Virus record (IMG/VR): IMGVR_UViG_3300003364_000021
Span: 60,839 to 80,838 of that record
Length of the DNA stretch: 20,000 bases
From: an uncultured virus (IMG/VR IMGVR_UViG_3300003364_000021)
Taxonomy: Duplodnaviria > Heunggongvirae > Uroviricota > Caudoviricetes
Reading direction: 5' to 3' (one strand)
Part shown: positions 541-11,540 of the stretch, one piece after another
Position numbering within the stretch: the first letter of the stretch is position 1
Layout of the letters: each line of letters opens with the position of its first letter
The notes under the pieces: model-generated
Database searches by the model: none
Seen by the model: only the letters and a program-made list of their open reading frames with translations
What the model was told of the DNA's origin: nothing
Made by a program: the position numbers and the translations under genes

Positions 541-1113
541 ATGCCCCCGCCTCGCAAGGTCGAACTCTTGCCGCCGGAGCTACGCGCGCGGCTCCACGGC
601 TGGTGGAAGGAAAAGGGCTTTCACGGCTACGAGGAGCTGACGGATGAGCTCAATTTCTGGCTGGAGGAAGAAGGCCTCGAGCTGCGCATCGGCAAGAGCG
701 CCCTGCATGCCTACGGGCAGGAGTACGAGCAGTTCGTCAAGCTCCAGGACGAAGCCGGAGCCTGGGCACAACAATGGCTGGCCGACAATGACCTATCGGA
801 AGAGGCCGACCGCCACCGCGTCCTCTTCCAGATGATGACCAGCGTCGCCTTCAAGGTGCTCAAATCGCAGATGGGCAAGGAGGGCGAGGACATCGACCCG
901 CGCGAGCTGCATTTCCTCGGCAAGATGATGAAGGACATCATGTCGAGCGCCGGGATCCGCGAGCAGCTCTTGGTCAAGGAACGCGCCCGCATCGCCGCCG
1001 AGGAGCGGGCGAACGCCGTCGAGGCGCTGGACAGCGCCCGCGATGAGCTGGGGCTCTCGAGCGACGTCATCGGCAAGCTGCGCCGGGAGTTTCTGGGGGT
1101 GCGCGGTGGATGA
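541..1113 (+). CDS. Mu gp27-like (DUF3486) probable terminase small subunit
   Basis: MPPPRKVELLPPELR...GY.EL...IGKSALH.YG and a C-terminal GLS...LRREFLG. ATG 541 directly follows the gp26 stop and is preferred over the 445 start. Confidence 0.82.
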   Translation: MPPPRKVELLPPELRARLHGWWKEKGFHGYEELTDELNFWLEEEGLELRIGKSALHAYGQEYEQFVKLQDEAGAWAQQWLADNDLSEEADRHRVLFQMMTSVAFKVLKSQMGKEGEDIDPRELHFLGKMMKDIMSSAGIREQLLVKERARIAAEERANAVEALDSARDELGLSSDVIGKLRREFLGVRGG

Positions 1114-1345
1114 ATTGATACCGACAGCACTGGATGACCTCGCGGGAATACCGAACAAGGATCTGTCGACCGGTGGGAAAGTGATGGTGGGTGACCACAA
1201 CTGGCGTCGCGCCCCATTGTCCCACCGCGTGCGAATATTTCTGTTCGGGCGCAGGGAGCGCATCACGCATCTGGGCGTGCACTGCACCATCGCGTGGTGG
1301 CGGGAGCAGCCCTATCTGATCTGGATTGCCGAGGCGCGTCCATGA
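1106..1345 (+). CDS. Hypothetical accessory protein (79 aa)
   Basis: GTG at 1106 overlaps the gp27 end and the stop overlaps the next ATG (ATGA). It fills the operon gap; no family recognised. Confidence 0.55.
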   Translation: MDELIPTALDDLAGIPNKDLSTGGKVMVGDHNWRRAPLSHRVRIFLFGRRERITHLGVHCTIAWWREQPYLIWIAEARP

Positions 1346-1638
1346 TCCGCGCCATTGAATTCCCCAACCCGGCTGAGTTCCGCCGCCAAAAACTGCCGGG
1401 CAGTTTCCACATCGATCTGACCCAAGGCGGCCCGGACGGCGCGGCCCTCTGGTTTTACTGCCCCTGCGGCTGCGACGGTCCGTCCCGGATCATTATCGGC
1501 CTGCGCGGCAAGCCCGCGTCTACCCCGAGCTGGGATTGGAACGGGTCCATGTCCGAGCCGACGCTCACGCCGTCGGTCAATCAACTGCGTTGCGGCTGGC
1601 ACGGCTGGCTGCGCGACGGCTACTGGGAGGTTGCATAA
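1342..1638 (+). CDS. DUF6527-like Cys/His (probable Zn-binding) protein
   Basis: FYCPCGC ... WDWNGS..EPTLTPSV...CGWHGWLRDGYW pattern. ATG 1342 is coupled to the upstream stop, with GAGG upstream. Confidence 0.75.
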   Translation: MIRAIEFPNPAEFRRQKLPGSFHIDLTQGGPDGAALWFYCPCGCDGPSRIIIGLRGKPASTPSWDWNGSMSEPTLTPSVNQLRCGWHGWLRDGYWEVA

Positions 1639-1928
1639 TGTCTGAACTGGTTTTCATCTGGGCTGTTTATCTGCTGGCGCAATTCGCCGACGTGGCGTCC
1701 ACGCGCGCCGCCCTGCGCGGCGGGCTGGTCGAGGCCAACCCGCTCATGGCCCGCCTCATGGGCCTGACGGGCAATTGGTGGGCCGTCAAGCTCGGCGTGG
1801 CACTCGCTGCTGGCATTCTGCTGACGTGGCTGGGTCAAGAGCGCTGGATCATGCTGCTCGCCGCGATCACCGGCGGCGTGGCCGTGAACAACTGGCGGCT
1901 GGTCCGCAAGCATCGGGAGCGGCGCTGA
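1638..1928 (+). CDS. Small membrane protein, DUF5658-like
   Basis: Hydrophobic helices with D..ST..AL..G..EANPLM and a C-terminal V.NN motif. ATG 1638 overlaps TAA. Confidence 0.65.
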   Translation: MSELVFIWAVYLLAQFADVASTRAALRGGLVEANPLMARLMGLTGNWWAVKLGVALAAGILLTWLGQERWIMLLAAITGGVAVNNWRLVRKHRERR

Positions 1929-2200
1929 TGGCCACACCCGCCCAAATCGCCAACGACATGGCCGCGCATGCCAAATACTGGGCCGGGCGTGATTGTAACA
2001 TAGAGCGCGTTTGCCGCGACGCGGCGTGGGTGATCCGTTCGATGCTGGAGGGACCAAAGGTAGACGGCCGCACGTACGGCGGCGTTCATCGGCGGCTCTT
2101 GAGATTGGAAATGGGTCCGGGCTGGAGGGTCAAAGGCTATCCGGACCTTGTCCGTGCAAGGCTTTGTATAGAACGCCTGCGCCGGGAGGCGCGTTGTTGA
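1928..2200 (+). CDS. Hypothetical basic protein (90 aa)
   Basis: MATPAQIANDMAAHAKYW.... TGATG coupling at both ends and GGAG upstream. Confidence 0.6.
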   Translation: MATPAQIANDMAAHAKYWAGRDCNIERVCRDAAWVIRSMLEGPKVDGRTYGGVHRRLLRLEMGPGWRVKGYPDLVRARLCIERLRREARC

Positions 2201-2394
2201 TGGCCTATCGATGGAAAAGACCGGACGGCAAAACCGGCAGCTGGGTTTCGACGGAGGATGCCGCAATTCAGGACGCGGTGCAGAAGAAAAGCTCAGGTCC
2301 GGGCCTCAAGGTTACGTTCGACCTTACCATTGCTCGGCTGCTCTTCAAATCGCTCGCCCGCAACGGTTGGAGTATAGAGGAGGGTAACCCGTGA
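2200..2394 (+). CDS. Hypothetical protein (64 aa)
   Basis: MAYRWKRPDGKTGSW.... GGAGG upstream, TGATG coupling, and the stop overlaps the terL GTG. Confidence 0.6.
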   Translation: MAYRWKRPDGKTGSWVSTEDAAIQDAVQKKSSGPGLKVTFDLTIARLLFKSLARNGWSIEEGNP

Positions 2395-4040
2395 CAGCCC
2401 CCGTCCTCACCCGCGACCCGGACGCGCTCCCCGAGGAGTTGCCGCGCGGCTCGGAAATCCCCGAGAGCCTCGATCCGCTGGCCGACGGCATCCTGATGGC
2501 GCATCAACGCTCCTGGTTGGCCGACGAGAGCGACCTCAAGGTTTGCGAGAAGGGCCGCCGCACCGGCATCACCTTTGCCGAGATGCTGGGCTGTGCGCTC
2601 ATTGCCGCCGCCGCGCGCGGCGCGGGCGGGCAGAACTGCTTTTACATCGGCGACACCAAGGACAAGGGCCGCGAGGCCATTGGCTATGTGGCGCATTTCG
2701 CGCGGGTGATTGCCGGGGCGGCCCACCCCATCGAGGAGTTTCTCTTCGAGGATCAACAGCCCGATGGCACCACCAAGTTCATCAACGCCTACCGGGTGCG
2801 CTTTGCCTCCGGGTTCCGGGTTGAGGCGCTGAGTTCCAACCCGGCCAACATCCGGGGTCTTCAGGGCACCGTGGTGATCGACGAGGCGGCCTTCCACAAG
2901 GATGTGCGCGAGGTGATCGACGCCGTCAACGCGATGCTGATCTGGGGCGGCAAGGTCCGGATCATCTCGACCCACAACGGCTATCTTAACGCCTTCAACG
3001 AACTGATCCGCGAAGCGCGCTCCGGCAAGAACGGCTTCAAGGTGCATCGCTACACCTTCGGCGATGCCGTCACCAACGGGCTTTATAAGCGCGTCTGCAT
3101 GATGCAGGGCAAGGTCTGGGGTGCCGCGGCCGAAGCGGACTGGGAGAGCACCATCCGCCGCTCCTACGGCGCGCGCGAGGCCGCCATGCGTCAGGAGCTC
3201 GATGCGGAGCCCGCCGAGATGCAGGGCGCGGCCCTCACCCGCGTGCAGATCGAGGCTTGCATGGCGCAGGGCATCCCGTTCCATCGCTGGACGCAGCCCG
3301 ACAGCTTCAAAAACGCCGATGAGGCCGTGCGCAAGGCCGCCGCTTTAACATGGTGTAGAACCCACCTTGAACCGGTGCTTGAAACCCTCGATCGCACCCG
3401 GCCGCATTTCATGGGCGAGGACTTTGCGCGCTCGGGCGACGCGACCGACATCATCATCCTCGAACAGGGCGTCGATCTCACCCGGCGCACCAAGCTCATC
3501 GTCGAGCTGCGCAATATCCCCTTTGACCAGCAGCGCGACGTGCTCTTCTGGCTGCTCGACCGCCTGCCCAACTTCCAAAAAGGGGCGATGGACCGCACCG
3601 GCAATGGCGCCTACCTCGCCGAGGTCGCAGCCCAACGCTATGGGTCGCGCATTGTCGAGGTGGCTTTCACGCGGCAATGGTACGAGCTCGAGATGCCTCC
3701 CTATATCGAGGCCTTCTCGGATCGCACCATCGTGCTGCCCGCCCATGAGGACGTGCTGCGCGATCACCAGGCGCTGCAATACACGGGCGGCATCATCCGC
3801 GTGCCGGAGAACTTTCGCTTCAAAGGCTCGGACGGTCTCGACCGCCACGGCGACAGCGCCATCGCGAGCGCGCTCGCCTGGTACGCCAGCAATCAGGACG
3901 TGGTGCCGATGGAATATCAATCGACCGGGCGGCGCGCCACGTCCGGTGCGGATGACTTCACAGGCACCATGGGTGGCCGACGCATGGGCTTTGCCCGGGG
4001 CGGCGGCGGTTTGGATTTCGGAGGGTTCGGAGATGGCTAG
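2391..4040 (+). CDS. terL: Terminase large subunit (Mu gp28-like)
   Basis: Q motif (LMAHQ), Walker A EKGRRTGIT, Walker B VVIDEAAF, IISTHNG, and nuclease motifs GEDFAR / MDRTGNG / HGDSAIA. Strong SD GAGGAGG. Confidence 0.95.
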   Translation: MTAPVLTRDPDALPEELPRGSEIPESLDPLADGILMAHQRSWLADESDLKVCEKGRRTGITFAEMLGCALIAAAARGAGGQNCFYIGDTKDKGREAIGYVAHFARVIAGAAHPIEEFLFEDQQPDGTTKFINAYRVRFASGFRVEALSSNPANIRGLQGTVVIDEAAFHKDVREVIDAVNAMLIWGGKVRIISTHNGYLNAFNELIREARSGKNGFKVHRYTFGDAVTNGLYKRVCMMQGKVWGAAAEADWESTIRRSYGAREAAMRQELDAEPAEMQGAALTRVQIEACMAQGIPFHRWTQPDSFKNADEAVRKAAALTWCRTHLEPVLETLDRTRPHFMGEDFARSGDATDIIILEQGVDLTRRTKLIVELRNIPFDQQRDVLFWLLDRLPNFQKGAMDRTGNGAYLAEVAAQRYGSRIVEVAFTRQWYELEMPPYIEAFSDRTIVLPAHEDVLRDHQALQYTGGIIRVPENFRFKGSDGLDRHGDSAIASALAWYASNQDVVPMEYQSTGRRATSGADDFTGTMGGRRMGFARGGGGLDFGGFGDG

Positions 4041-5586
4041 GAAGACCAGCACGATGCGACTGCGGTCAGTGCGGATGCGCAACCCGATGGAGCTTTCGGG
4101 CATCCAGAACGGTCGTGACATCACCCGGCCGTGGATCGGCCCGCTGCTCGAGCCGACCGATCCGATCCTGCGCACGCGCGGCGGCGGCAGCTTTGATATC
4201 TACAAACCGATCCTGACCGATCCGCAGGTCAAATCGGTGATGACGCAGCGCATCTCGGCCGTGACCAGCCGGGAATGGGAAGTGGTGCCGGGCGAGGACA
4301 CGGTGGCAGGCAAACGCGCGGCCGACTGGCTGCGGGACGAGCTTTCGGCCATGAAGTTCGACCGCCTGACCGAGAAGATGCTCTGGGGGCTCTTCTATGG
4401 GTATTCCGTCGCCGAGCAGATGTATCGGCGCGACGGGCAAATCTGGGGCTGGGAGGAGATCCGCGTGCGCGACCGTGTCAGGTTTCGCTTTGACGAGGAC
4501 TGCGGCTTGCGCCTGCTGACCATGTCGAACATGCTTATGGGCGAGGAGATGCCGCCCGAGAAGTTCTGGGTCTTCTCGACCGGGGCGGATCACGACGACG
4601 AGCCCTATGGCCTCGGCCTCGCGCATTGGCTCTATTGGCCGGTCTGGTTCAAACGCAACGGCCTCAAGCTCTGGCTGATCGCCCTCGACAAGTTCGGCAT
4701 GCCGACCGGACGGGGCAAGTATCCGGCGCAAGCCACAGAAGAGGAGAAGAAGACGCTGCTCGAGGCCGTAATGGCAATCCGCTCCGAGGCGGGGATCATC
4801 ATTCCCGAAGGCATGGATATCGATCTGCTGTCGGCACCGTCAGGGTCCAGTTCACTCGATTACCAGAAGCTGCACGACGCGATGGACGCCGCCATCTCGA
4901 AGATCGTTCTGTCGCAAACCATGACGACGGACGACGGCTCCAGCCGCTCTCAGGCCGAGGTGCATGACGGCGTCGGTGATGCCGTTAAGAAGTCCGATGC
5001 GGATCTGGTCTGTCAATCCTTCAACGAGGGACCGGTGGCGCAGCTCTCCGCGTTCAACTTCCCGGGCGTTGTGCCCCCAAAGGTGTGGCGCAAGATGGAG
5101 GACCCGGAAGACACCACCGCCGCCGTGGACCGCGACGAGAAGCTGCATCGCATGGGCTGGCGCATGTCCGAGGACCGCGTACAGGAGACCTATGGCGATG
5201 GGTATGAGCGTGCCGCACCTCCGGACACCCCCCCGCCGGGTGAGGAGGCCGCACCGGAGGCCGGTTTCGCCGAGCATCGCCACGATAGCGCACTCGATGC
5301 GCTTGCGGCCGAGATTATCGCCGAGGGACATGCCGAGGCGGCCGTCGAGCCGCTATTCGCAGATATCGCGTCCCTTCTGGGCAGCATCGCACCGGGCACC
5401 ACGCTTGAGGCGCTGCGCGCCCGTATCGACGCCTTGGCGGCCGCACCGAGCGACGGACAAGCGATGACTGACCTCTTGACTGAGGCCAGTTTCGCCGCGC
5501 GTCTGGCGGGTGAGCTGGGGGCCGTGGTGGATGACAGCGAGGCGGCGGACGGGTCGGACACCCTGCCCGGCTCCGTGGCCCCATGA
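4033..5586 (+). CDS. Portal protein (Mu gp29 / DUF935)
   Basis: GYSVAE, PYGLGL..LYWPV.FK, DKFGMP..GKY, IIPEGMDI, ISKIVLSQTMTT..GSSRSQAEVH. GGAG precedes ATG 4033, and the gene follows terL. Confidence 0.93.
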   Translation: MARKTSTMRLRSVRMRNPMELSGIQNGRDITRPWIGPLLEPTDPILRTRGGGSFDIYKPILTDPQVKSVMTQRISAVTSREWEVVPGEDTVAGKRAADWLRDELSAMKFDRLTEKMLWGLFYGYSVAEQMYRRDGQIWGWEEIRVRDRVRFRFDEDCGLRLLTMSNMLMGEEMPPEKFWVFSTGADHDDEPYGLGLAHWLYWPVWFKRNGLKLWLIALDKFGMPTGRGKYPAQATEEEKKTLLEAVMAIRSEAGIIIPEGMDIDLLSAPSGSSSLDYQKLHDAMDAAISKIVLSQTMTTDDGSSRSQAEVHDGVGDAVKKSDADLVCQSFNEGPVAQLSAFNFPGVVPPKVWRKMEDPEDTTAAVDRDEKLHRMGWRMSEDRVQETYGDGYERAAPPDTPPPGEEAAPEAGFAEHRHDSALDALAAEIIAEGHAEAAVEPLFADIASLLGSIAPGTTLEALRARIDALAAAPSDGQAMTDLLTEASFAARLAGELGAVVDDSEAADGSDTLPGSVAP

Positions 5587-6914
5587 TCGACCTGCAGCGC
5601 CTGCGCCCCGAGGATGCGCTGTCCTTCTTTCGCTCCAAGGGCCTCGCCCCGCCCGATGCGCGGTTCGATTTCCGCGACGTCTGGCGCAATGAGCACGCGA
5701 GCAATTTCGTTGTCGCCAAGGCGATGCGGACTGACGTGCTCGAGACGATCCGGGGCGCGCTCGACCGTGCGCTGGCCAACGGCGGCACGCTGGGCAGCTT
5801 CATGGATGACCTCGAGCCCGAGTTGAAACGGCTCGGCTGGTGGGGCAGCGGCACGGAGCGCGACCCCCTGACCGGCGAGTTGAAGAACGTCCGGCTTGAC
5901 TCGCCGCGCCGCCTGCGGGTGATCTTCGACGCCAATATGCGCGCGGCCCATGCTGCGGGCAAATGGGCGCGCATTCAGCGCACCAAGGCGGCCTTCCCCT
6001 TCCTGCGCTACGTCCAGATCCAGCGCGACACCAAGCGCGAGGACCACGCGCGCTATCACGACCTGATCCTGCCCGTCGATCACCCGGCATGGCTTCGCAT
6101 CTTTCCCCCCAACGGCTGGCGGTGCGGCTGCACCGTTCAGCAACTCTCGCAGGGCATGCTAGAGCGGCGCGGCCTCAAGGTGACAGAGGATTTCGAGCTG
6201 GAGGAGCGCGGGGTGCTGAACCGTCGCACCGGTGAGATCGAACCCACGGCACTCGGGGTCGATCCCGCGTGGGATGGCAACCCGGGTCAGGCGTGGCTTG
6301 ACCTCGGGGCGCGCCACGCAGGCGTATCGGCCGGGCTTTCCGCCCCGGCGGCGGCGACCGAGCTTGGCTTTGTCATGCGCGCCCGGCTCATGGGCCTGGG
6401 CGATGGGCGGGAGCATCTTGGCGCATTCGATCTGAGGACCGGCGAGGAAATCGACTGGAGCGTGGGCAAGCCGAAGCGCGTCAAACTGACCCCCTCCATA
6501 ATCCAGCGGCTGGAGAGCGGCACGGCCGTCGGCCTCGTGCACAATCACCCCAGTTCCGCGCCGCTCAGCCCGGATGACATGGCGGTTATGTTCCAGCGCC
6601 AAGTTCGATCAATCATCGCCGTTGGTCACGACGGCTCACTCTACCGGGCACAGATGCTGAGACTTAGCCGTGGCGACATGCGCGAGCTTTCGGAGGTGGC
6701 GGCAGAACTCATTGACGAGTTGGCCCCGGCCTTGACCAATACAGAGCGCGACCATGCGGTGCGCCTCGCGGTCCTCGACGTCTTGCAGTCTCAGGGCCTG
6801 ATCTTATATCAAGAGAGCCTTGGCGCGCAGTCGCGAGCAATCCGGCAGCGCATAGAAGAGTCCGCCCGGGGTGTTGCCGCTGCCATTGTCAGGGCCATGA
6901 ACGGAGATCCGTGA
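5583..6914 (+). CDS. MuF (gp30) minor head protein with C-terminal JAB/MPN-like extension
   Basis: MuF core: F.VAK, LGWWG, SPRRL.VIFDANMR.A.AAGKW, H....DLILPVDHP.W....PPNGWRCGC, VDP.WD.NPG. This is followed by about 200 extra residues with E...HNHPS...LSPDD. Confidence 0.88.
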   Translation: MIDLQRLRPEDALSFFRSKGLAPPDARFDFRDVWRNEHASNFVVAKAMRTDVLETIRGALDRALANGGTLGSFMDDLEPELKRLGWWGSGTERDPLTGELKNVRLDSPRRLRVIFDANMRAAHAAGKWARIQRTKAAFPFLRYVQIQRDTKREDHARYHDLILPVDHPAWLRIFPPNGWRCGCTVQQLSQGMLERRGLKVTEDFELEERGVLNRRTGEIEPTALGVDPAWDGNPGQAWLDLGARHAGVSAGLSAPAAATELGFVMRARLMGLGDGREHLGAFDLRTGEEIDWSVGKPKRVKLTPSIIQRLESGTAVGLVHNHPSSAPLSPDDMAVMFQRQVRSIIAVGHDGSLYRAQMLRLSRGDMRELSEVAAELIDELAPALTNTERDHAVRLAVLDVLQSQGLILYQESLGAQSRAIRQRIEESARGVAAAIVRAMNGDP

Positions 6915-7132
6915 TGCGAACGTTGCTGGTTGAGCCGCCCGACGAATGGAGCCGCGAGGCTTATGAGGCCGCATTGCGCGAAGCGGAAGCATTGCCTGAC
7001 GACGATCCGGACAAGGAAGAGCTGGTCGCGGTCCGCCGCGAAGATCTGTTTGGGTATTTCGACCGCCCTAAGAGGACGCCCGAAGAGCGCCGTGCGATCC
7101 TGCGCGCATTCCTTGTCGATCCGGCCTCCTGA
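6914..7132 (+). CDS. Small acidic protein, candidate immunity/partner of the MuF C-terminal domain
   Basis: 72 aa, D/E-rich and probably helical. GGAG at 6903-6906, with ATG 6914 overlapping the MuF stop (GTG 6911 is an alternative start). Confidence 0.6.
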   Translation: MRTLLVEPPDEWSREAYEAALREAEALPDDDPDKEELVAVRREDLFGYFDRPKRTPEERRAILRAFLVDPAS

Positions 7133-7380
7133 GGCGATTTCGGGCAAATTGGCCTTGCGAGCGCACCTGCAACCGAGGCCGCGCCACGGAATACCCCGTC
7201 AGAGCGCCATTAAATACCCATTGAATACCCCCCTCGGCCCTGCGGGCCACCTTCCCCCGCCGTCAGGGGGGAGGCCATTCTGGGGGCCTCTCAGGGCCTC
7301 TTGGCATTCCGGCCTTGCCGGATGCCCGGTTGGGCGGATAGTGTGGCCACAAGGGGACCCTGCCAAAACCTCGCCTCCCC

Positions 7381-7430
7381 TGAAGCCCTTCATCTGATAT
7401 GGCACCCGCGCCCGGCCTAGTGTCGGTCGC
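7381..7430 (+). promoter_or_regulatory. Candidate activator-dependent late promoter (Mu PI-like) giving a leaderless transcript
   Basis: Dyad TGAAG-CC-CTTCA at 7381-7392 and -10-like TAGTGT at 7418-7423, 7 nt before ATG 7431. No SD and no recognisable -35. Confidence 0.55.
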
Positions 7431-8516
7431 ATGACAAAACCGCTTCACATCTTCCGCGCTGGCCGCCACACCGCCCAATCCGGGCAGAGCTTCGAATTTT
7501 CCGAGGCTGAGGTTGAGGGCATCGCCGCTGCCTATGATCCCGCCCTCCACGAGGCCCCCATTGTCGTGGGCCATCCCCGCACCGATGCCCCGGCCTATGG
7601 CTGGGTGAAATCCCTGCGCGCCGAAGGGGCCGAGCTTTTCGCCGAGCCTGACCAGGTCGAGCCTGCCTTCGCCGAGATGGTGCGCGCCGGACGCTTCAAG
7701 CGGATCAGCGCCTCTTTCTATCCCCCCAAGGCCGCCGCTAACCCGACCCCCGGCATCTATTACCTCAAGCATGTGGGCTTTCTGGGTGCTCAGCCCCCCG
7801 CCGTGAAAGGCCTCAAGGCGGCCGAGTTCTCTGAGGACGCCGAGGCCGTGACCCTTGAGATCGCCTTCTCGGAAGAAGACGCGCCTGTCGCCAGTTTCGG
7901 CGATGCCCTGAAAGGCGCGATCTCCGCCGTCCTGTCCTGGGCACGCACGCCCGCAGGCCAGGAGGCACTCCGCGACGCCGCAGGCGCGCCCGAGACCGAG
8001 CCCGCCCCATTCGCCGAAACCCAAGAAGGAGACCCCGATATGTCCGGCACGGACAAGCCAACCCCCGAAGACCGCCAAGCCGCGCTCGATGCGCGCGAGG
8101 CCGAGATTGCCGCCAAGGAGGCGGCCTTCGCCGAAGGTACGCGCGCCGCACGCCGCGCCGAAGACGCGGCCCTCCTCGACGCCCTTGCCAAGGACGGGCG
8201 CATCGCCCCCGGCCTCAAGGATGAGATGGCCGCGTTCATGGAAAACCTCGACGCGACGGACGAGGTGTCTTTTGCCGAAGGCAAGACCGCCAGCCAGCGC
8301 GACTGGTTCCGCGACCTGCTCTCAAAACGGGCCAAGCCGCTGATCGATTTCAGCGAGCGGGCGGGTGGTGACGCCCTGCCACAGGTCAAGGGAGCGGACG
8401 ACATCACCGCAGCGGCCAAGCGGCTGATCAAGGACGCCGAGGCCGAAGGCCGAACGCTGAGCTTTGCGGAGGCGGCCCGGCAGATCGAAGAAACCATGGA
8501 GAGCGACGATGCCTAA
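7431..8516 (+). CDS. Prohead protease/scaffold (Mu gpI-like)
   Basis: IFRAGRH, YDP.LHEAPIVVGHP....PAYGWV, GRFKRISASFY, YLKHVGFLGAQPPAVKGL, followed by an acidic Ala-rich scaffold half. Confidence 0.9.
   Translation: MTKPLHIFRAGRHTAQSGQSFEFSEAEVEGIAAAYDPALHEAPIVVGHPRTDAPAYGWVKSLRAEGAELFAEPDQVEPAFAEMVRAGRFKRISASFYPPKAAANPTPGIYYLKHVGFLGAQPPAVKGLKAAEFSEDAEAVTLEIAFSEEDAPVASFGDALKGAISAVLSWARTPAGQEALRDAAGAPETEPAPFAETQEGDPDMSGTDKPTPEDRQAALDAREAEIAAKEAAFAEGTRAARRAEDAALLDALAKDGRIAPGLKDEMAAFMENLDATDEVSFAEGKTASQRDWFRDLLSKRAKPLIDFSERAGGDALPQVKGADDITAAAKRLIKDAEAEGRTLSFAEAARQIEETMESDDA
8040..8516 (+). CDS. Nested in-frame scaffolding protein (Mu gpZ-like)
   Basis: AAGGAG at 8026-8031 precedes an in-frame ATG at 8040 (MSGTDKPTPE...). 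Mu I/Z uses the same internal-start arrangement. Confidence 0.65.
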   Translation: MSGTDKPTPEDRQAALDAREAEIAAKEAAFAEGTRAARRAEDAALLDALAKDGRIAPGLKDEMAAFMENLDATDEVSFAEGKTASQRDWFRDLLSKRAKPLIDFSERAGGDALPQVKGADDITAAAKRLIKDAEAEGRTLSFAEAARQIEETMESDDA

Positions 8517-8874
8517 TCCCGGTATGTTCATCAAATCCTACACCGCCGAGGCGGCGGTGCCCGGCCGCCGGATCGTCAAATTCGGCGCGGGCGGCGGCAT
8601 CCTTGTGGCCGCCTCCGCGACCAATCTCGCGATTGGCATCTCGGACCAACTGGATGCGGCCATTGGCCAGACAGCGGACGTGATCATGTCCGGCTCCGGA
8701 GAGCTCAAGCTCGCGGGCACAGTCGCCGCAGGTGCGCCCGTCGCCTCGAACGCCTCGGGCCTCGGTGTGGCCGCAGTGGCCGGAGCCGGAAACATCGCCA
8801 TCGGCTACGCGCTGCAGGCGGGCGTCGCTGGCGACATCATCGACGTGGCCATCGCCCGTCACTCTGTCACCTGA
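8509..8874 (+). CDS. Capsid cement/decoration protein (DUF2190-like)
   Basis: Small Ala/Gly-rich protein (AIGIS, V..SG, V.AGAPVAS.ASG, IGYAL.AG.AGDIIDV) between scaffold and capsid. GGAG precedes ATG 8509. Confidence 0.75.
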   Translation: MPNPGMFIKSYTAEAAVPGRRIVKFGAGGGILVAASATNLAIGISDQLDAAIGQTADVIMSGSGELKLAGTVAAGAPVASNASGLGVAAVAGAGNIAIGYALQAGVAGDIIDVAIARHSVT

Positions 8875-8893
8875 TCTTTAGGAGCGCTGATCC

Positions 8894-9853
8894 ATGAGCA
8901 CCCCCACCCCCTTTGTCGTCGATCCGGTCCTGACCGCCATCGCCGTCAATTTCCGCAACCCCGACATCTCGTTCATTGCCGACGAGGTCATGCCGCGCGT
9001 GCCGGTCATGGCTACGGATTTCAAATGGACCTATTTCCCGCCTGAGCAGATGTTCACGGTGCCCGACACGGAAGTCGGCCGCAAAGGTCTGGTCCAACAG
9101 GTTGAGTTCACCGGCGAAGAGCGCACCTCTTCGGTCAAGGACTACGGTCTCGACGACGTGGTGCCGCAGCGCGACATCGATGCCGCCCGCGCCCTGCGCG
9201 CCGCTGGCAATTCGGCTTTCGATCCCGAGGCGCGCGCCGTCGAGGGTCTGGCCCATCTGATCCAGCTCGACCGCGAAAAGCGCGTGGCCGCCATGGTGCA
9301 GGACGCGGCCAACTATGACGCGGACAAAAAAGTGGTGCTCTCGGGCGCGGGCCAGTTCAGCGATCCCACGTCCGATCCCATCGGCGTGATCTCTGCCGCC
9401 CTTGATGCCACCTTCATCATGCGCCCCAACGTGGCCGCGATGGGGCGTAAGGCCTGGACGGCGCTCTCGACCCATCCCGATATCCTGAAGGCCATCAACC
9501 GGACCTCGGGCGACAAGGGCCGCGCCGGCCGCGAGGCGGTGGCGGAGCTTTTCGAACTCTCTCAGATCCTCGTGGGCGACAGCTATATCAACTCGGCCCG
9601 CAAGGGTCAGACGGCTGCCTTCGAGAAGGTCTGGGGCGGCAATATCGCCCTGATCCATCGCAACACTCAGGCCGGTCCGGACGGCACCGCCCCCGCATGG
9701 GGCTGGACGGCGCAGTTCGACGGGCGCGTCTCGGGGCGCTTCTTTGACCCCAAGGTCGGCCTCAAAGGTTCCACCACGCTCCGCGTAGGCGAGCAGGTCC
9801 GCGAAGTCATCGCGGCTCCGGCCACCGGCTATCTGATCGAGGATGCGGCATGA
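8894..9853 (+). CDS. Major capsid protein
   Basis: 319 aa with DPVLTAIA..F.N...IADEVMPRVPV, L.REKRVA, SDPI..I and RPN...MG...W..L..HP. AGGAG SD and expected position. Confidence 0.88.
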   Translation: MSTPTPFVVDPVLTAIAVNFRNPDISFIADEVMPRVPVMATDFKWTYFPPEQMFTVPDTEVGRKGLVQQVEFTGEERTSSVKDYGLDDVVPQRDIDAARALRAAGNSAFDPEARAVEGLAHLIQLDREKRVAAMVQDAANYDADKKVVLSGAGQFSDPTSDPIGVISAALDATFIMRPNVAAMGRKAWTALSTHPDILKAINRTSGDKGRAGREAVAELFELSQILVGDSYINSARKGQTAAFEKVWGGNIALIHRNTQAGPDGTAPAWGWTAQFDGRVSGRFFDPKVGLKGSTTLRVGEQVREVIAAPATGYLIEDAA

Positions 9854-10206
9854 GCTATCTCATCAAACGCACCGTGATCGCAGCCAAGCGGCTGGAGGCG
9901 GGAACGACCGTCCCCGCGCAAAAAATCGGCGGGGAGGCGCAGATTGCGCGCCTTCTCGCCCTGGGCGCAATCGAAGAGGCCGGGGACGCGGCAGACACCG
10001 CGCCGCCGCTTGTCCTCGACGACGCGCTGCGCGTGGCCTTGACCAATGCCATCAACGCCCTGCCCGGCGACGCCTTCGACAAGAGCGGCAAGCCCAAGGT
10101 CAAGGCACTGCAGGACGCGCTTCCCGGTTTGGCCGACCAGATCACCGCCGCCGCGCGGGATTCGGTCTGGGCCGGGATGCAGGCCGCCGCCAACGCGGCA
10201 TCCTGA
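9850..10206 (+). CDS. Mu gp35/HI1506-like post-capsid protein
   Basis: LLALGAIEE N-terminal module and F.KSGKPKVKAL...ITAA.RD..W C-terminal module; immediately after the capsid gene. Confidence 0.6.
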   Translation: MSYLIKRTVIAAKRLEAGTTVPAQKIGGEAQIARLLALGAIEEAGDAADTAPPLVLDDALRVALTNAINALPGDAFDKSGKPKVKALQDALPGLADQITAAARDSVWAGMQAAANAAS

Positions 10207-10360
10207 AATTCCAGAGCGAAAGGATCAATCGCGAACCTCACGGGCACATAGGGCGACAACCAGACCCCTCCGGAGGCGATCCGAGTAGGCGCGGCCCACG
10301 CGAGTTGGAGCCTGCAACGTCTGAGGAATGGACGTGACAGCCGGGAGAGACCGGCACCAA
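10207..10360 (+). ncRNA. Candidate structured RNA / leader element upstream of the acb2-like gene
   Basis: Multiple pairings: CAGAC(10261-65)/GTCTG(10319-23), CCT-CCGG-AGG, TCCGA/TTGGA, GTAGG/CCTGC, CGCG/CGCG, and GCCGG-GAGAGA-CCGGC(10340-55). Confidence 0.45.
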
Positions 10361-10382
10361 ACACCCAACCCGGAGGCGCGCC

Positions 10383-10610
10383 ATGGCCGAGACGATCAAG
10401 AGCACCGACGACACCCGGGTCGAAAACAGCCCCGTGCGGCACAGCTACCGCAAACTGGGCGACATCGAGAAGGCCCGGGTCGAGGCGATCAAGGATATCG
10501 GCCAAAGGTTTCTCGACGAGATCGCCGCCGATCAGGGCCGCGAGTTTTCCCTCGCGCGCACCAAGATCGAAGAGGCCGTCATGTGGGCCGTCAAAGGGGT
10601 GGCCCGCTGA
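10383..10610 (+). CDS. acb2: Acb2/Vs.4-like (Acb2/Tad1 hairpin) cyclic-oligonucleotide sponge, anti-CBASS candidate
   Basis: YRKL...E......IKD.G..F and RE.SLARTKIEEAVMWAVKGV resemble Acb2 (YR.L..EEI.....KE.G..F) and T4 Vs.4 (AKTKLKEASMWA..AV) as recalled. GGAGG SD. Confidence 0.75.
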   Translation: MAETIKSTDDTRVENSPVRHSYRKLGDIEKARVEAIKDIGQRFLDEIAADQGREFSLARTKIEEAVMWAVKGVAR

Positions 10611-11035
10611 TGGCCTACCTGACTGTGCAAGACATGATCGACCGCTACGGCGAAGGCTTCCTCGCCGAAGTGACGGCGCGTGACACAATCCCCGGCGTGA
10701 TCGGTATGACCGCGCTGCAGGTGGCCGTGGACGACGCCGTGTCTGTCGCCGAGAGCTATGTCGCAGGGCTTTACAATGCAGACAATCCGCCCCGTGTCCT
10801 GACGATGCATACTGCGGCAATTGCCTGGTACCGGCTGCTCGGTGCGCGGGCCGCCGCCTTTGACGGGGCCGAAGAGGGCTATGAGGCCGCGATCAGCTTT
10901 CTGCGCGAAGTGCGCAAGGGCGAGGCCTCGCTCGGAGACGAGACGCCCGAGGACACAGGCCGGGGCAATCCCCAGCTACCCCAGATCAGCGCGCCGGAGG
11001 GCACCTTCACCCGCGACAGCCTGAAGGGGTTCTGA
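10610..11035 (+). CDS. Head-tail adaptor (Mu gp36 / DUF1320)
   Basis: MAYLTVQDMIDRYGE, A..DA....ESY..G.Y, IAWYRL, YEAAISFL..V.KG.ASLG, and a terminal F.RDSLKGF. Confidence 0.88.
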   Translation: MAYLTVQDMIDRYGEGFLAEVTARDTIPGVIGMTALQVAVDDAVSVAESYVAGLYNADNPPRVLTMHTAAIAWYRLLGARAAAFDGAEEGYEAAISFLREVRKGEASLGDETPEDTGRGNPQLPQISAPEGTFTRDSLKGF

Positions 11036-11036
11036 G

Positions 11037-11540
11037 ATGGTCACCCTCACAGTCAGCCTCGACAGTCTCGACTTTGACAGCGCCATTGCCAATGGCCTGC
11101 GCCAGTTGTCCGACCTCACCCCTTTGATGCGCCGCATCGGCACCGTTCTGGAAACCTCCGTCTCGGAGCGGTTCGAGAAGGGCGAAGGCCCGGGCGGCAT
11201 CGCGTGGCCCGTCTCGCACCGCGCGCGCGAGTTCGGCGGCAAGACGCTGGTCGACAGTACACGCCTGCGGGACAGCATCGTGACAGAGGCTGACAGCCAG
11301 TCCGCGCGCATCGGCACCAACGTGCCCTACGCCGCCACCCATCAGTTTGGCGCGTTCATCGAGCCGAAGGCCGCGGGCGGTGACGCCACGGCCAAACTCG
11401 CCTTCACCCTGCCCAATGGCCAATTCATCATGGTCGACCAGGTCGAAATTCCAGCCCGGCCCTTTCTGGGCTTTGACGACAAGGACGAGACCGACATCGT
11501 GGACACGGTCGAGACCTATCTCCGCGAGGTATTCGCATGA
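11037..11540 (+). CDS. Phage virion morphogenesis protein (Mu gpG / P2 gpS family)
   Basis: DLTPLM..IG, RF.....P.G..W, L.D..RLR.SI, IGTNVPYAA.HQFG, IPARPFLG. Confidence 0.9.
   Translation: MVTLTVSLDSLDFDSAIANGLRQLSDLTPLMRRIGTVLETSVSERFEKGEGPGGIAWPVSHRAREFGGKTLVDSTRLRDSIVTEADSQSARIGTNVPYAATHQFGAFIEPKAAGGDATAKLAFTLPNGQFIMVDQVEIPARPFLGFDDKDETDIVDTVETYLREVFA

Follow-up and report, generated by a model that had tools for sequence, protein, structure and literature searches.

We analysed a 20,000-nucleotide stretch of DNA (the window) that forms the final 20 kb of an 80,838-base IMG/VR entry, IMGVR_UViG_3300003364_000021, from an uncultured virus. The window covers head and tail genes of a Mu-like siphophage, which make up its late operon; the phage is integrated in a Roseovarius-type host, the operon lies on the + strand with 65% G+C, and the relatives that bear names are Roseovarius prophages. 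Three accessory genes sit among the late genes, all on the + strand: one for a stand-alone DUF6527 (BubE-like) protein of 98 amino acids (1342..1638), one for a 443-amino-acid protein (5583..6914) in which a MuF (Mu gp30/SPP1 gp7-like) domain (residues 1–244; 5583..6314) is fused to a C-terminal JAB/MPN+ domain with a JAMM motif and RadC-like features (residues 245–443; 6315..6914), and one for a 75-amino-acid nucleotide-signal sponge of the Acb2 family (10383..10610). All three share the orientation of the late structural genes and are translationally coupled to them. A first-pass annotation had taken them for independent inserts that might together make a multi-layer toolkit against CBASS (antiphage systems whose signalling is cyclic-oligonucleotide-based) and ubiquitin-like (Ubl) defences.

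On balance, the probable account is a late operon with three separately acquired accessory modules, a sponge, a BubE-like peptidase and a MuF-borne JAB domain. We observed the gene identities, the conserved catalytic residues, the pattern of presence and absence in relatives, and CBASS and Bub operons in the host genus; we infer biochemical activities, virion packaging and counter-defence roles. The modules would have been gained separately, and would be transcribed with the structural genes to which they are translationally coupled. The Acb2-family protein, as a hexamer, would soak up the cyclic di- and trinucleotides of CBASS. The BubE-like DUF6527 protein, made alongside the virion proteins, would cut the host Bub modifier off its targets, or would process or destroy the modifier. 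The C-terminal cargo slot of MuF, holding a RadC-like JAB domain instead of PBECR3, would be packed in the capsid and injected, and would act early in infection.

The Acb2-family and BubE-like genes

The Acb2-like gene at 10383..10610 has exactly the coordinates first assigned to it. Its product matches Pfam PF24729 (Acb2_Tad1_hairpin) above the cut-off (E 7.2e-17, 61.8 bits against 27), over profile positions 1–58 of 58, and a GGAGG ribosome-binding site lies 6 nt before the ATG. A structure model built on nine homologues (predicted local distance difference test score, pLDDT, 79.9) has two long helices, residues 27–47 and 53–74, at pLDDT above 90, and a poorly defined N-terminus. When this model was compared with the PDB by Foldseek, rows 1–9 were PaMx33 Acb2 (8h2j, 8h2x) and T4 Vs.4 (7uq2), with Tad1 next; for those nine rows the probability was 0.72–0.97 and the query TM-score (TMq) 0.49–0.59, with E-values that are weak (0.5–1), which a 75-residue hairpin would lead one to expect.

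Residues that contact the ligand also have counterparts here. According to PMC10312549, Y11 and K26 of PaMx33 Acb2 contact cyclic dinucleotides, and R67 and T74 contact cA3; by alignment, not by structure, these correspond to Y22, K37, R53 and T60. The motifs Y22-R-K-L and K37-D-I-G are 15 residues apart, matching the spacing of G-Y-R-D-L and V-K-E-L-G in PaMx33, whose contexts we took from the mutagenesis primers given in that paper. R53 and T60 align with D61 and T68 of T4 Vs.4, equated there with R67 and T74, a mapping that assumes a one-residue offset between the PDB chain index and the numbering. Among nine close homologues K37 is invariant, and R53 and T60 are kept in 8/9.

The protein thus shares PF24729, the two-helix hairpin and the four contact-residue counterparts with the Acb2/Vs.4 sponges (PaMx33 8H2J, JBD67 orf24, T4 Vs.4 7UQ2). 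Its gene, like known Acb2 genes, is placed among the structural genes of a Mu-like phage, and its 228 bp equal the length of the JBD67 acb2 deletion interval, 23005–23232, listed in PMC10312549. It differs from the solved Acb2 and Vs.4 proteins in sequence, with about 20–25% identity in the Foldseek alignments and weak sequence E-values to PDB chains (0.03–0.7). Profile, alignments and fold together bear out the first-pass assignment to the Acb2 family, with cyclic-nucleotide contact residues kept, and the gene is an ordinary new member of the known anti-CBASS/Thoeris sponge family. We consider it fairly likely that the protein is a sponge for CBASS signals, most likely a hexamer binding cyclic di- and trinucleotides. 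The family includes 3'cADPR-binding, Thoeris-specific members, as reported in a sponge preprint (10.1101/2025.08.24.671296); because Acb2 relatives can target Thoeris instead of CBASS, we infer the ligand here, and the competing possibility is a different immune signal, for example 3'cADPR.

The DUF6527 gene at 1342..1638 was likewise placed exactly. Its product matches PF20137 (E 6.4e-17; 61.6 bits, the cut-off being 23.6, and 62.4 bits when the genome was searched) and PHROG 15183 (E 1.8e-31), a single-sequence PDB search with it gave no match, and GAGG lies 7 nt before its ATG. The Bub preprint (10.1101/2024.11.21.623953) identifies DUF6527 as BubE, a Ser-His protease with a C4 zinc finger encoded in Bub (formerly 6E) operons, which cuts peptide and isopeptide bonds and strips BubA from its targets. 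With Citrobacter BubE as reference (zinc ligands C57, C59, C61 and C99; dyad S92 and H102), the predicted zinc ligands of the 98-residue phage protein are C40, C42, C44 and C84 and its predicted catalytic residues S78 and H87.

Conservation follows these positions. All 92 relatives (85–151 amino acids) carry PF20137, the named ones coming from Rhodobacteraceae. Among 24 phage-type sequences C40, P41, G43, P77, S78, W86, H87 and G88 are invariant and C42 and C44 occur in at least 90%; some phage copies have His in place of the fourth Cys. Once Type I and Type II BubE proteins are added to the alignment, C40, G43, C44, P58, W64, P73, P77, S78, H87 and G93 are invariant, and hhalign of phage DUF6527 against operon BubE gives 95% probability. 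Judged from sequence, the phage protein is likely to be an active enzyme. The tie to ubiquitin-like conjugation that the first-pass annotation had drawn for this gene holds, given that DUF6527 is BubE and that the phage copy keeps the zinc and catalytic residues; the pathway it had in mind, type II CBASS or Bil, does not, as the linked pathway is Bub.

The phage protein resembles BubE in PF20137, in the CxCxC motif and fourth zinc ligand, in the PS(V) serine and (W/C)H histidine, and in a similar core size. Unlike BubE, it stands alone in a phage late operon without E1, E2 or Ubl: its neighbours are the small terminase subunit (TerS), DUF5658, two small open reading frames (ORFs) and the large terminase subunit (TerL), and a search of the 80.8-kb record for ThiF (E1) found none. 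Also unlike BubE, it ends right after the domain, with no hydrophobic extension at either terminus; P0274 and P0275, which are host BubE proteins, do carry extensions, and the window has a separate DUF5658 membrane protein.

That DUF5658 gene belongs to a four-gene cassette with overlapping stop and start codons, headed by DUF6527 and continued by DUF5658 (1638..1928, +; small membrane protein of 96 amino acids, PF18902 E 1.5e-8), orfG (1928..2200, +; 90 amino acids, helical) and orfH (2200..2394, +; 64 amino acids, its stop overlapping the TerL start at 2391). The DUF5658 gene is present in just some DUF6527-positive relatives; orfG occurs in 6/9 DUF6527-positive Roseovarius-cluster types, counting the partial locus L008, and orfH was seen solely in the window's own type and in L032. 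Neither orfG nor orfH matched a family in Pfam or PADLOC, neither resembles a ubiquitin-like protein by that Pfam search, and for orfG the Atlas structures gave only weak helical-bundle look-alikes.

By tblastn, DUF6527 homologues were found in 14 cultured-phage records from seven host genera. The Mu-like roseophages Thiobacimonas vB_ThpS-P1 and Rhodovulum vB_RhkS_P1 carry the gene between TerS and TerL, as the window does; in Caulobacter phage Sansa it is close to the left end. In Microcystis phage Mae-JY30 a homologue (46% identical, L105:3974-4285) has a tail assembly gene on one side and gpX/gpD-like genes on the other, within a P2-like tail module; this is again a late-operon location, in an unrelated phage and host phylum.

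When phages carry a catalytically intact BubE homologue with neither ligase nor modifier, and express it alongside virion proteins, the simplest reading is a deconjugase directed at the host pathway. We therefore propose, tentatively and on sequence grounds, that DUF6527 is a viral deconjugase that would cut the Bub modifier off targets or process or destroy it. A wider version is somewhat more doubtful: that stand-alone phage DUF6527 proteins generally are viral deconjugases, stripping the Bub modifier from phage structural proteins or destroying the modifier, which would make the MuF-JAB of this phage an additional isopeptidase, delivered by injection. Of the whole locus, the stand-alone phage DUF6527 is what is new in its context and open to direct testing. 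The literature that we searched holds no description of phage-borne DUF6527, although the supplementary tables of the Bub and sponge preprints might list some, and describes no phage enzyme that removes a bacterial ubiquitin-like tag.

Bub operons are characterised biochemically, and their biological role is not known. From a conserved, catalytically intact BubE homologue that phages carry with no ligase or modifier, one would predict that phage proteins receive Bub tags and that the phages take these off again; the Roseovarius or Citrobacter operons make an immediate test possible. If true, this would be the first functional evidence of Bub operons as antiphage systems that tag virions, and the phage enzymes would be to bacterial viruses what deISGylases and deubiquitinases are to other viruses.

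The JAB domain of the MuF protein

The MuF ORF spans 5583–6914 (443 amino acids). Its N-terminal part matches Phage_Mu_F (PF04233; E 4.9e-10, residues 55–185) and PHROG 220 (E 4.6e-72, residues 3–241). The JAB region had first been placed at 6290–6914, with a partner gene; its start is off the frame by one base (the in-frame position is 6291, and 6291–6911 encodes residues 237–443 of MuF), and both the domain and the partner are real. The partner is an acidic 73-amino-acid ORF (6911..7132, +) whose start overlaps the MuF stop; it has 21 invariant columns across 11 homologues, no family match in Pfam or PADLOC, and nothing in the Atlas.

Pfam searches with the JAB domain returned no JAB-type model, even at E≤10, and a single-sequence PDB search with MuF-JAB gave no meaningful match. 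Across 16 relatives E277, H320, N321, H322, P323, S325 and D332 are invariant and S329 is kept in at least 90%. The resulting E..HNHP..S..D motif is the JAMM pattern, with six residues from H322 to S329, one fewer than in RadC 2qlc. The AlphaFold2 model of the C-terminal domain is confident (pLDDT 93.1; predicted template modelling score, pTM, 0.88), and 49 of the 50 Foldseek rows listed for it are JAB/MPN proteins, among them CSN5, PfJAMM1, Rpn11 and an archaeal homologue, AMSH, BRCC36, BubCD, a bacterial Ubl-deubiquitinase and RadC. A predicted JAB fold with intact JAMM active-site residues is therefore well supported by model and motif; the Foldseek fold scores do not separate the JAB subfamilies.

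By sequence the nearest family is the RadC clade. The best PDB match of the JAB profile is RadC 2qlc (E 0.12), and among 32 relatives scanned by Pfam, out of 231 found at E≤1e-3 in an exhaustive search, two match RadC weakly (E 2e-6 and 2.6e-5), one of them also matching Prok-JAB. The 32 comprise nine MuF fusions, one portal fusion, four proteins with polyvalent-protein marker domains (ddrB-ParB, LPD38, InPase, LPD39) and 18 without a Pfam family, 17 of which have 161–303 amino acids and one 1931. Closer in, 26 proteins match residues 245–443; 25 carry the MuF Pfam domain, the weakest match, P0031, has no precomputed Pfam domain, and the named ones come from Roseovarius plus one Tropicimonas. 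These architectures match the polyvalent-protein/MuF-cargo pattern of injected effectors laid out by Iyer et al. 2017 (PMC5512222), and MuF-JAB is a member of that described class of injected multidomain proteins.

With RadC-clade JABs of polyvalent and MuF proteins (PMC5512222) the window domain has in common the JAB fold, the HNHPS motif, the fusion to MuF, relatives in giant polyvalent proteins of phages and mobile elements, and presumed delivery with DNA. Unlike them, it falls below the Pfam RadC (PF04002) and Prok-JAB (PF14464) models; its core is flanked by extra helical residues (about 40 N-terminal, about 75 C-terminal), besides the shorter motif spacing; and structurally it comes as near, or nearer, to JABs of the deubiquitinase type. 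It also differs from Cap3 (type II CBASS), BilC and BubC in having no E1/E2/Ubl linkage, in being fused to a virion protein, and in giving no sequence match to Prok-JAB.

These comparisons bear on the substrate. Iyer et al. 2017 argue that RadC-type JABs lack the ubiquitin-tail groove, and predict nucleic acids or nucleotides as their substrates. Given that the window domain is nearest to this clade by sequence, a Cap3- or BilC-like role for it is just one possibility among several. An isopeptide or peptide substrate and a nucleic acid or nucleotide substrate are each conceivable, and we hold both equally tentatively.

The alternative that survives best goes further: the JAB domain would be a RadC-type enzyme on nucleic acids or nucleotides, injected so that it could process or protect the DNA of the phage or break down a nucleotide signal, with no Ubl role. 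It draws on the HNHPS signature common to RadC 2qlc, on RadC being the best JAB-type Pfam model among relatives (both matches are large MuF or polyvalent proteins), on the relatives in giant polyvalent proteins beside ddrB-ParB, InPase, LPD38 and LPD39, and on the substrates predicted for polyvalent-protein RadC domains. Set against it, RadC function itself is unproven (PMC5512222), a search for newer work turned up nothing decisive, and the full JAMM metal and catalytic set is invariant, as in active isopeptidases; we judge it rather unlikely. Whichever substrate applies, the MuF-JAB fusion opens a way into what RadC-like JAB domains do, long a puzzle, because a sister phage offers a natural swap of PBECR3 for JAB.

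Distribution in related phages and their hosts

This sister is a second Mu-like prophage on the same record, with head genes at about 20.9–39 kb (locus L103). It is 96% identical to the window in TerL, 96% in capsid, 87% in protease and 79% in portal. A tblastn search of the sister gave no match for DUF6527, DUF5658, orfG, orfH, the partner ORF or Acb2; its gp27 directly abuts TerL, and its counterpart of a 118-amino-acid ORF, orf118, directly abuts gp36. Since the sister lacks DUF6527 and Acb2 in otherwise collinear operons, both are true insertions. The sister MuF is only 32% identical to that of the window, over residues 24–240, and its C-terminus is a nuclease-like PBECR3 domain (PF18812), in which the F protein of phage Mu is likewise said to end (Iyer et al. 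2017, PMC5512222). JAB is a domain and gene replacement of PBECR3. The description as three independent inserts accordingly fits DUF6527 and Acb2, whose sister slots are empty, and not JAB, which is a domain swap. The sister pair cleanly shows late-operon slots as exchange points for putative counter-defence cargo.

Other rearrangements touch the same operons. In L103 the MuF-PBECR3 gene (5150–6442) is followed by gpG (6516–7019), whereas gpG of the window comes after gp36 (11037–11540); as the position of gpG differs, the MuF-to-protease segment was rearranged as well as swapped. Four loci (L003, L004, L005, L008) are collinear with the window and 67–72% identical in portal, yet only 28–32% identical in TerL, and their terminase was exchanged as a module right beside the DUF6527 slot. 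The window and sister prophages are closely related, with about 40 kb between them on their shared record; at least eight further IMG/VR records of 73–82 kb contain this pair, and another record (L032 and L035) holds two related prophages with differing accessory sets. Such pairs could be double lysogeny or tandem integration of near-identical transposable phages.

The next alternative is that the three genes form one coordinated, co-selected toolkit, in which DUF6527 and MuF-JAB would block Ubl priming or tagging (Cap2/Cap3-type, Bil or Bub) and Acb2 would mop up the second messenger. Co-occurrence bears directly on it. We scored the three slots in 53 IMG/VR loci (found by capsid), eight genome loci (found by MuF), the window and the sister, and added three cultured roseophages, whose long branches make their tree placement unsure; for vB_ThpS-P1 the Acb2 scan covered bases 12056–34343. 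Loci not spanning all three slots were left out (27, among them L008, L029 and L061-L062), and copies identical in portal, MuF, capsid and TerL (100%, save one portal at 99.9%) were merged. The resulting 19 dereplicated types show 7/8 possible combinations of presence and absence. All three genes occur together in seven types; JAB alone occurs in five, JAB with Acb2 in two, and none of the three in two, while DUF6527 with Acb2, DUF6527 alone, and DUF6527 with JAB are represented by one type each.

DUF6527 and Acb2 tend to go together. Across the 19 types eight have both, two DUF6527 only, two Acb2 only and seven neither (naive two-sided Fisher p 0.023); across the 16 Roseovarius-cluster types these counts are 8, 0, 2 and 6 (p 0.007). 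A stricter rule, that DUF6527 always comes with Acb2, is true for 8/8 Roseovarius-cluster types and is broken by two cultured roseophages. JAB is not associated with Acb2 (p 0.30) or with DUF6527 (p 1.0) in the 19 types. The portal tree requires at least five changes each for DUF6527 and Acb2 and at least two for JAB. Four independent pairs differ in DUF6527, and Acb2 changed along with it in about 2.2 of them, against it in none, and not at all in 1.8; the tree-aware sign test gives a median p of 0.5, and four pairs cannot reach significance. We regard a DUF6527–Acb2 link as possible and unproven.

Host defences were surveyed in 101 genomes of the host genus. DUF6527 occurs in 15/101, in two score classes. 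The high class (at least 82 bits) comprises nine places in six genomes, and three of these that we inspected are two intact Bub operons and one remnant flanked by insertion sequences; the low class (54–64 bits) comprises six places, prophage copies among them. Both intact operons are in one Roseovarius metagenome-assembled genome (G004): a Type I operon (L071:2220-8447) and a Type II operon (L070:3683-8410). One operon encodes Multi_ubiq+Prok-E2_E, Prok-JAB+ThiF and DUF6527; the other encodes DUF6791+ThiF and DUF6527 and comes with an HTH-M78 regulator. The Type I operon adjoins a gene for a 1172-amino-acid UvrD-helicase/PD-(D/E)XK protein with an M78 peptidase domain, and the Type II operon adjoins the HTH-M78 (CapH/CapP-like) regulator. 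The DUF6527 remnant is in R. mucosus (L069:1808-2068), at the start of a CBASS-bearing contig.

SMODS domains were found in 13/101 genus genomes. R. mucosus DSM 17069 has a prophage in which all three genes are present and MuF is 91% identical to that of the window, and it also has three CBASS operons (L100 and L101 on contig C15, L102 on C16). One is a TRIP13-cyclase-NucC operon; each of the others combines a phospholipase effector and a cyclase with an E2 only and capH/capP. Two of the three are about 15 kb apart on one contig, which also holds the DUF6527 remnant. CBASS is thus present in a host species of this phage group, as the first-pass annotation presupposed. Among six host genomes of related prophages, one of which has SMODS, the co-occurrence with CBASS content that it had suggested checking was not seen, and there was no association with Bub content either, at a sample size far too small for this.

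For the toolkit, then, speak the placement of all three genes in one late operon coupled to structural genes, their joint presence in 7/19 types, the Fisher association of DUF6527 with Acb2, the lack of any opposite change of Acb2 in the four pairs, and the E2 in two R. mucosus CBASS operons. Against it, the cultured roseophages have DUF6527 alone, JAB alone, and DUF6527 with JAB and no Acb2; JAB tracks the portal/MuF lineage and not the other two genes, and its signature is that of a clade argued to lack the ubiquitin-tail groove; and neither the sign test nor the six host genomes lend a link. The first-pass annotation had named an independent distribution of the genes as the outcome that would count against its proposal, and a largely independent distribution is what we found. 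Overall that proposal is partly supported: the genes are co-oriented with the late genes and coupled to them; they are no fixed set. The distribution data do not support one coordinated toolkit of several layers, and we hold it to be improbable.

Slightly less credible still is that MuF-JAB and its small ORF are a MuF polymorphic toxin and immunity protein, used against competitors or newly infected cells. It shares with the MuF polymorphic toxins of Jamet et al. 2017 (PMC5576092) its architecture: a MuF N-domain, a variable enzymatic C-domain that is swapped between the sister phages (PBECR3 against JAB), a downstream ORF of fewer than 150 amino acids overlapping the MuF stop, and a temperate phage. 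The C-domain, unlike theirs, is not a recognised toxin; JAB and RadC are not known as toxins, and JAB, RadC and MPN are not mentioned in that paper. Many relatives, of 161–303 amino acids, have no Pfam family. The small ORF is moreover dispensable in some relatives: three JAB-positive types lack it (L007/L037/L051, L008 and L052/L053; slot of about 300 nt against about 500 nt). An essential antidote should always be there, and its loss weakens the toxin-immunity reading.

That DUF6527, JAB or both serve phage assembly, for instance by processing a virion or packaging protein, and not counter-defence is very improbable: both lie within morphogenesis operons, and DUF6527 recurs in the TerS-TerL slot (window, vB_ThpS-P1, vB_RhkS_P1) and between the Mae-JY30 tail genes, but relatives with 96% identical terminase and capsid do without both genes, so that assembly does not need them, DUF6527 has undergone at least five gains or losses among 19 phages on the portal tree, and a gpI-type prohead protease is already encoded within the operon (7431–8516).

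Three separately acquired modules with counter-defence roles remain the account that we prefer, and several points weigh against it. The antiphage role of Bub is itself only inferred, from CapW and CapH/CapP regulators, in 10.1101/2024.11.21.623953. Phage DUF6527 lacks the hydrophobic extension and scores 54–64 bits against PF20137, compared with at least 82 bits for the high-scoring class, and its substrate may differ from that of BubE. In the Acb2-like protein, Y22 is kept in just 7/9 close homologues, and the best single-sequence PDB match is Acb2 homolog 43 (E 0.041), which binds 3'cADPR and shows no CBASS inhibition according to 10.1101/2025.08.24.671296. That MuF cargo is probably packed in the virion and injected with the DNA comes from the literature. 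As to hosts, a SMODS gene is present in only 1/5 hosts of Acb2-positive prophages, and the only related-prophage host with intact Bub operons (G004) carries a DUF6527-negative prophage.

The surrounding late operon

The remaining genes, all on the + strand, give the slots their edges. Genes for a DUF2730 protein and then a phrog_436 protein lie upstream of the Mu gp27-like small terminase subunit gene (541..1113; Pfam Phage_Mu_Gp27 E 3.7e-28, PHROG 426), the upstream edge of the first slot; TerL (2391..4040; PHROG 2 E 6.3e-34) is its downstream edge. A Mu-type portal gene follows and ends at 5586, and the MuF gene comes after it. Beyond the partner ORF are the gpI-type prohead protease/scaffold gene (7431–8516), a gene for a phrog_673 protein, the major capsid gene (8894–9853) and orf118 (9850–10206), which separates the capsid gene from Acb2. 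The Acb2 stop overlaps the start of the gene for a Mu gp36-like head-tail adaptor (10610..11035; PF07030 E 4.2e-19), the downstream edge of the third slot. The gpG gene (11037–11540) is followed by tail terminator, tube and tape-measure genes.

PADLOC matched none of the eight accessory proteins. A promoter scan of the window gave no promoter-like sites, and a terminator scan gave 10 terminator-like sites, not above shuffled sequence (7.5 ± 2.8); separate transcription units are not indicated. Two gene-free gaps, 1113–1341 (229 bases) ahead of DUF6527 and 7132–7430 (299 bases) between the partner ORF and the protease gene, hold no promoter-like or convincing terminator-like site. The gap before the protease stays, at about 300 nt, in relatives without the partner ORF. 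The 118-amino-acid orf118 is kept in all relatives (59–86% identical), Acb2-negative ones included; its single match is a weak one, to PHROG 2498, and it is probably a head-completion or decoration protein.

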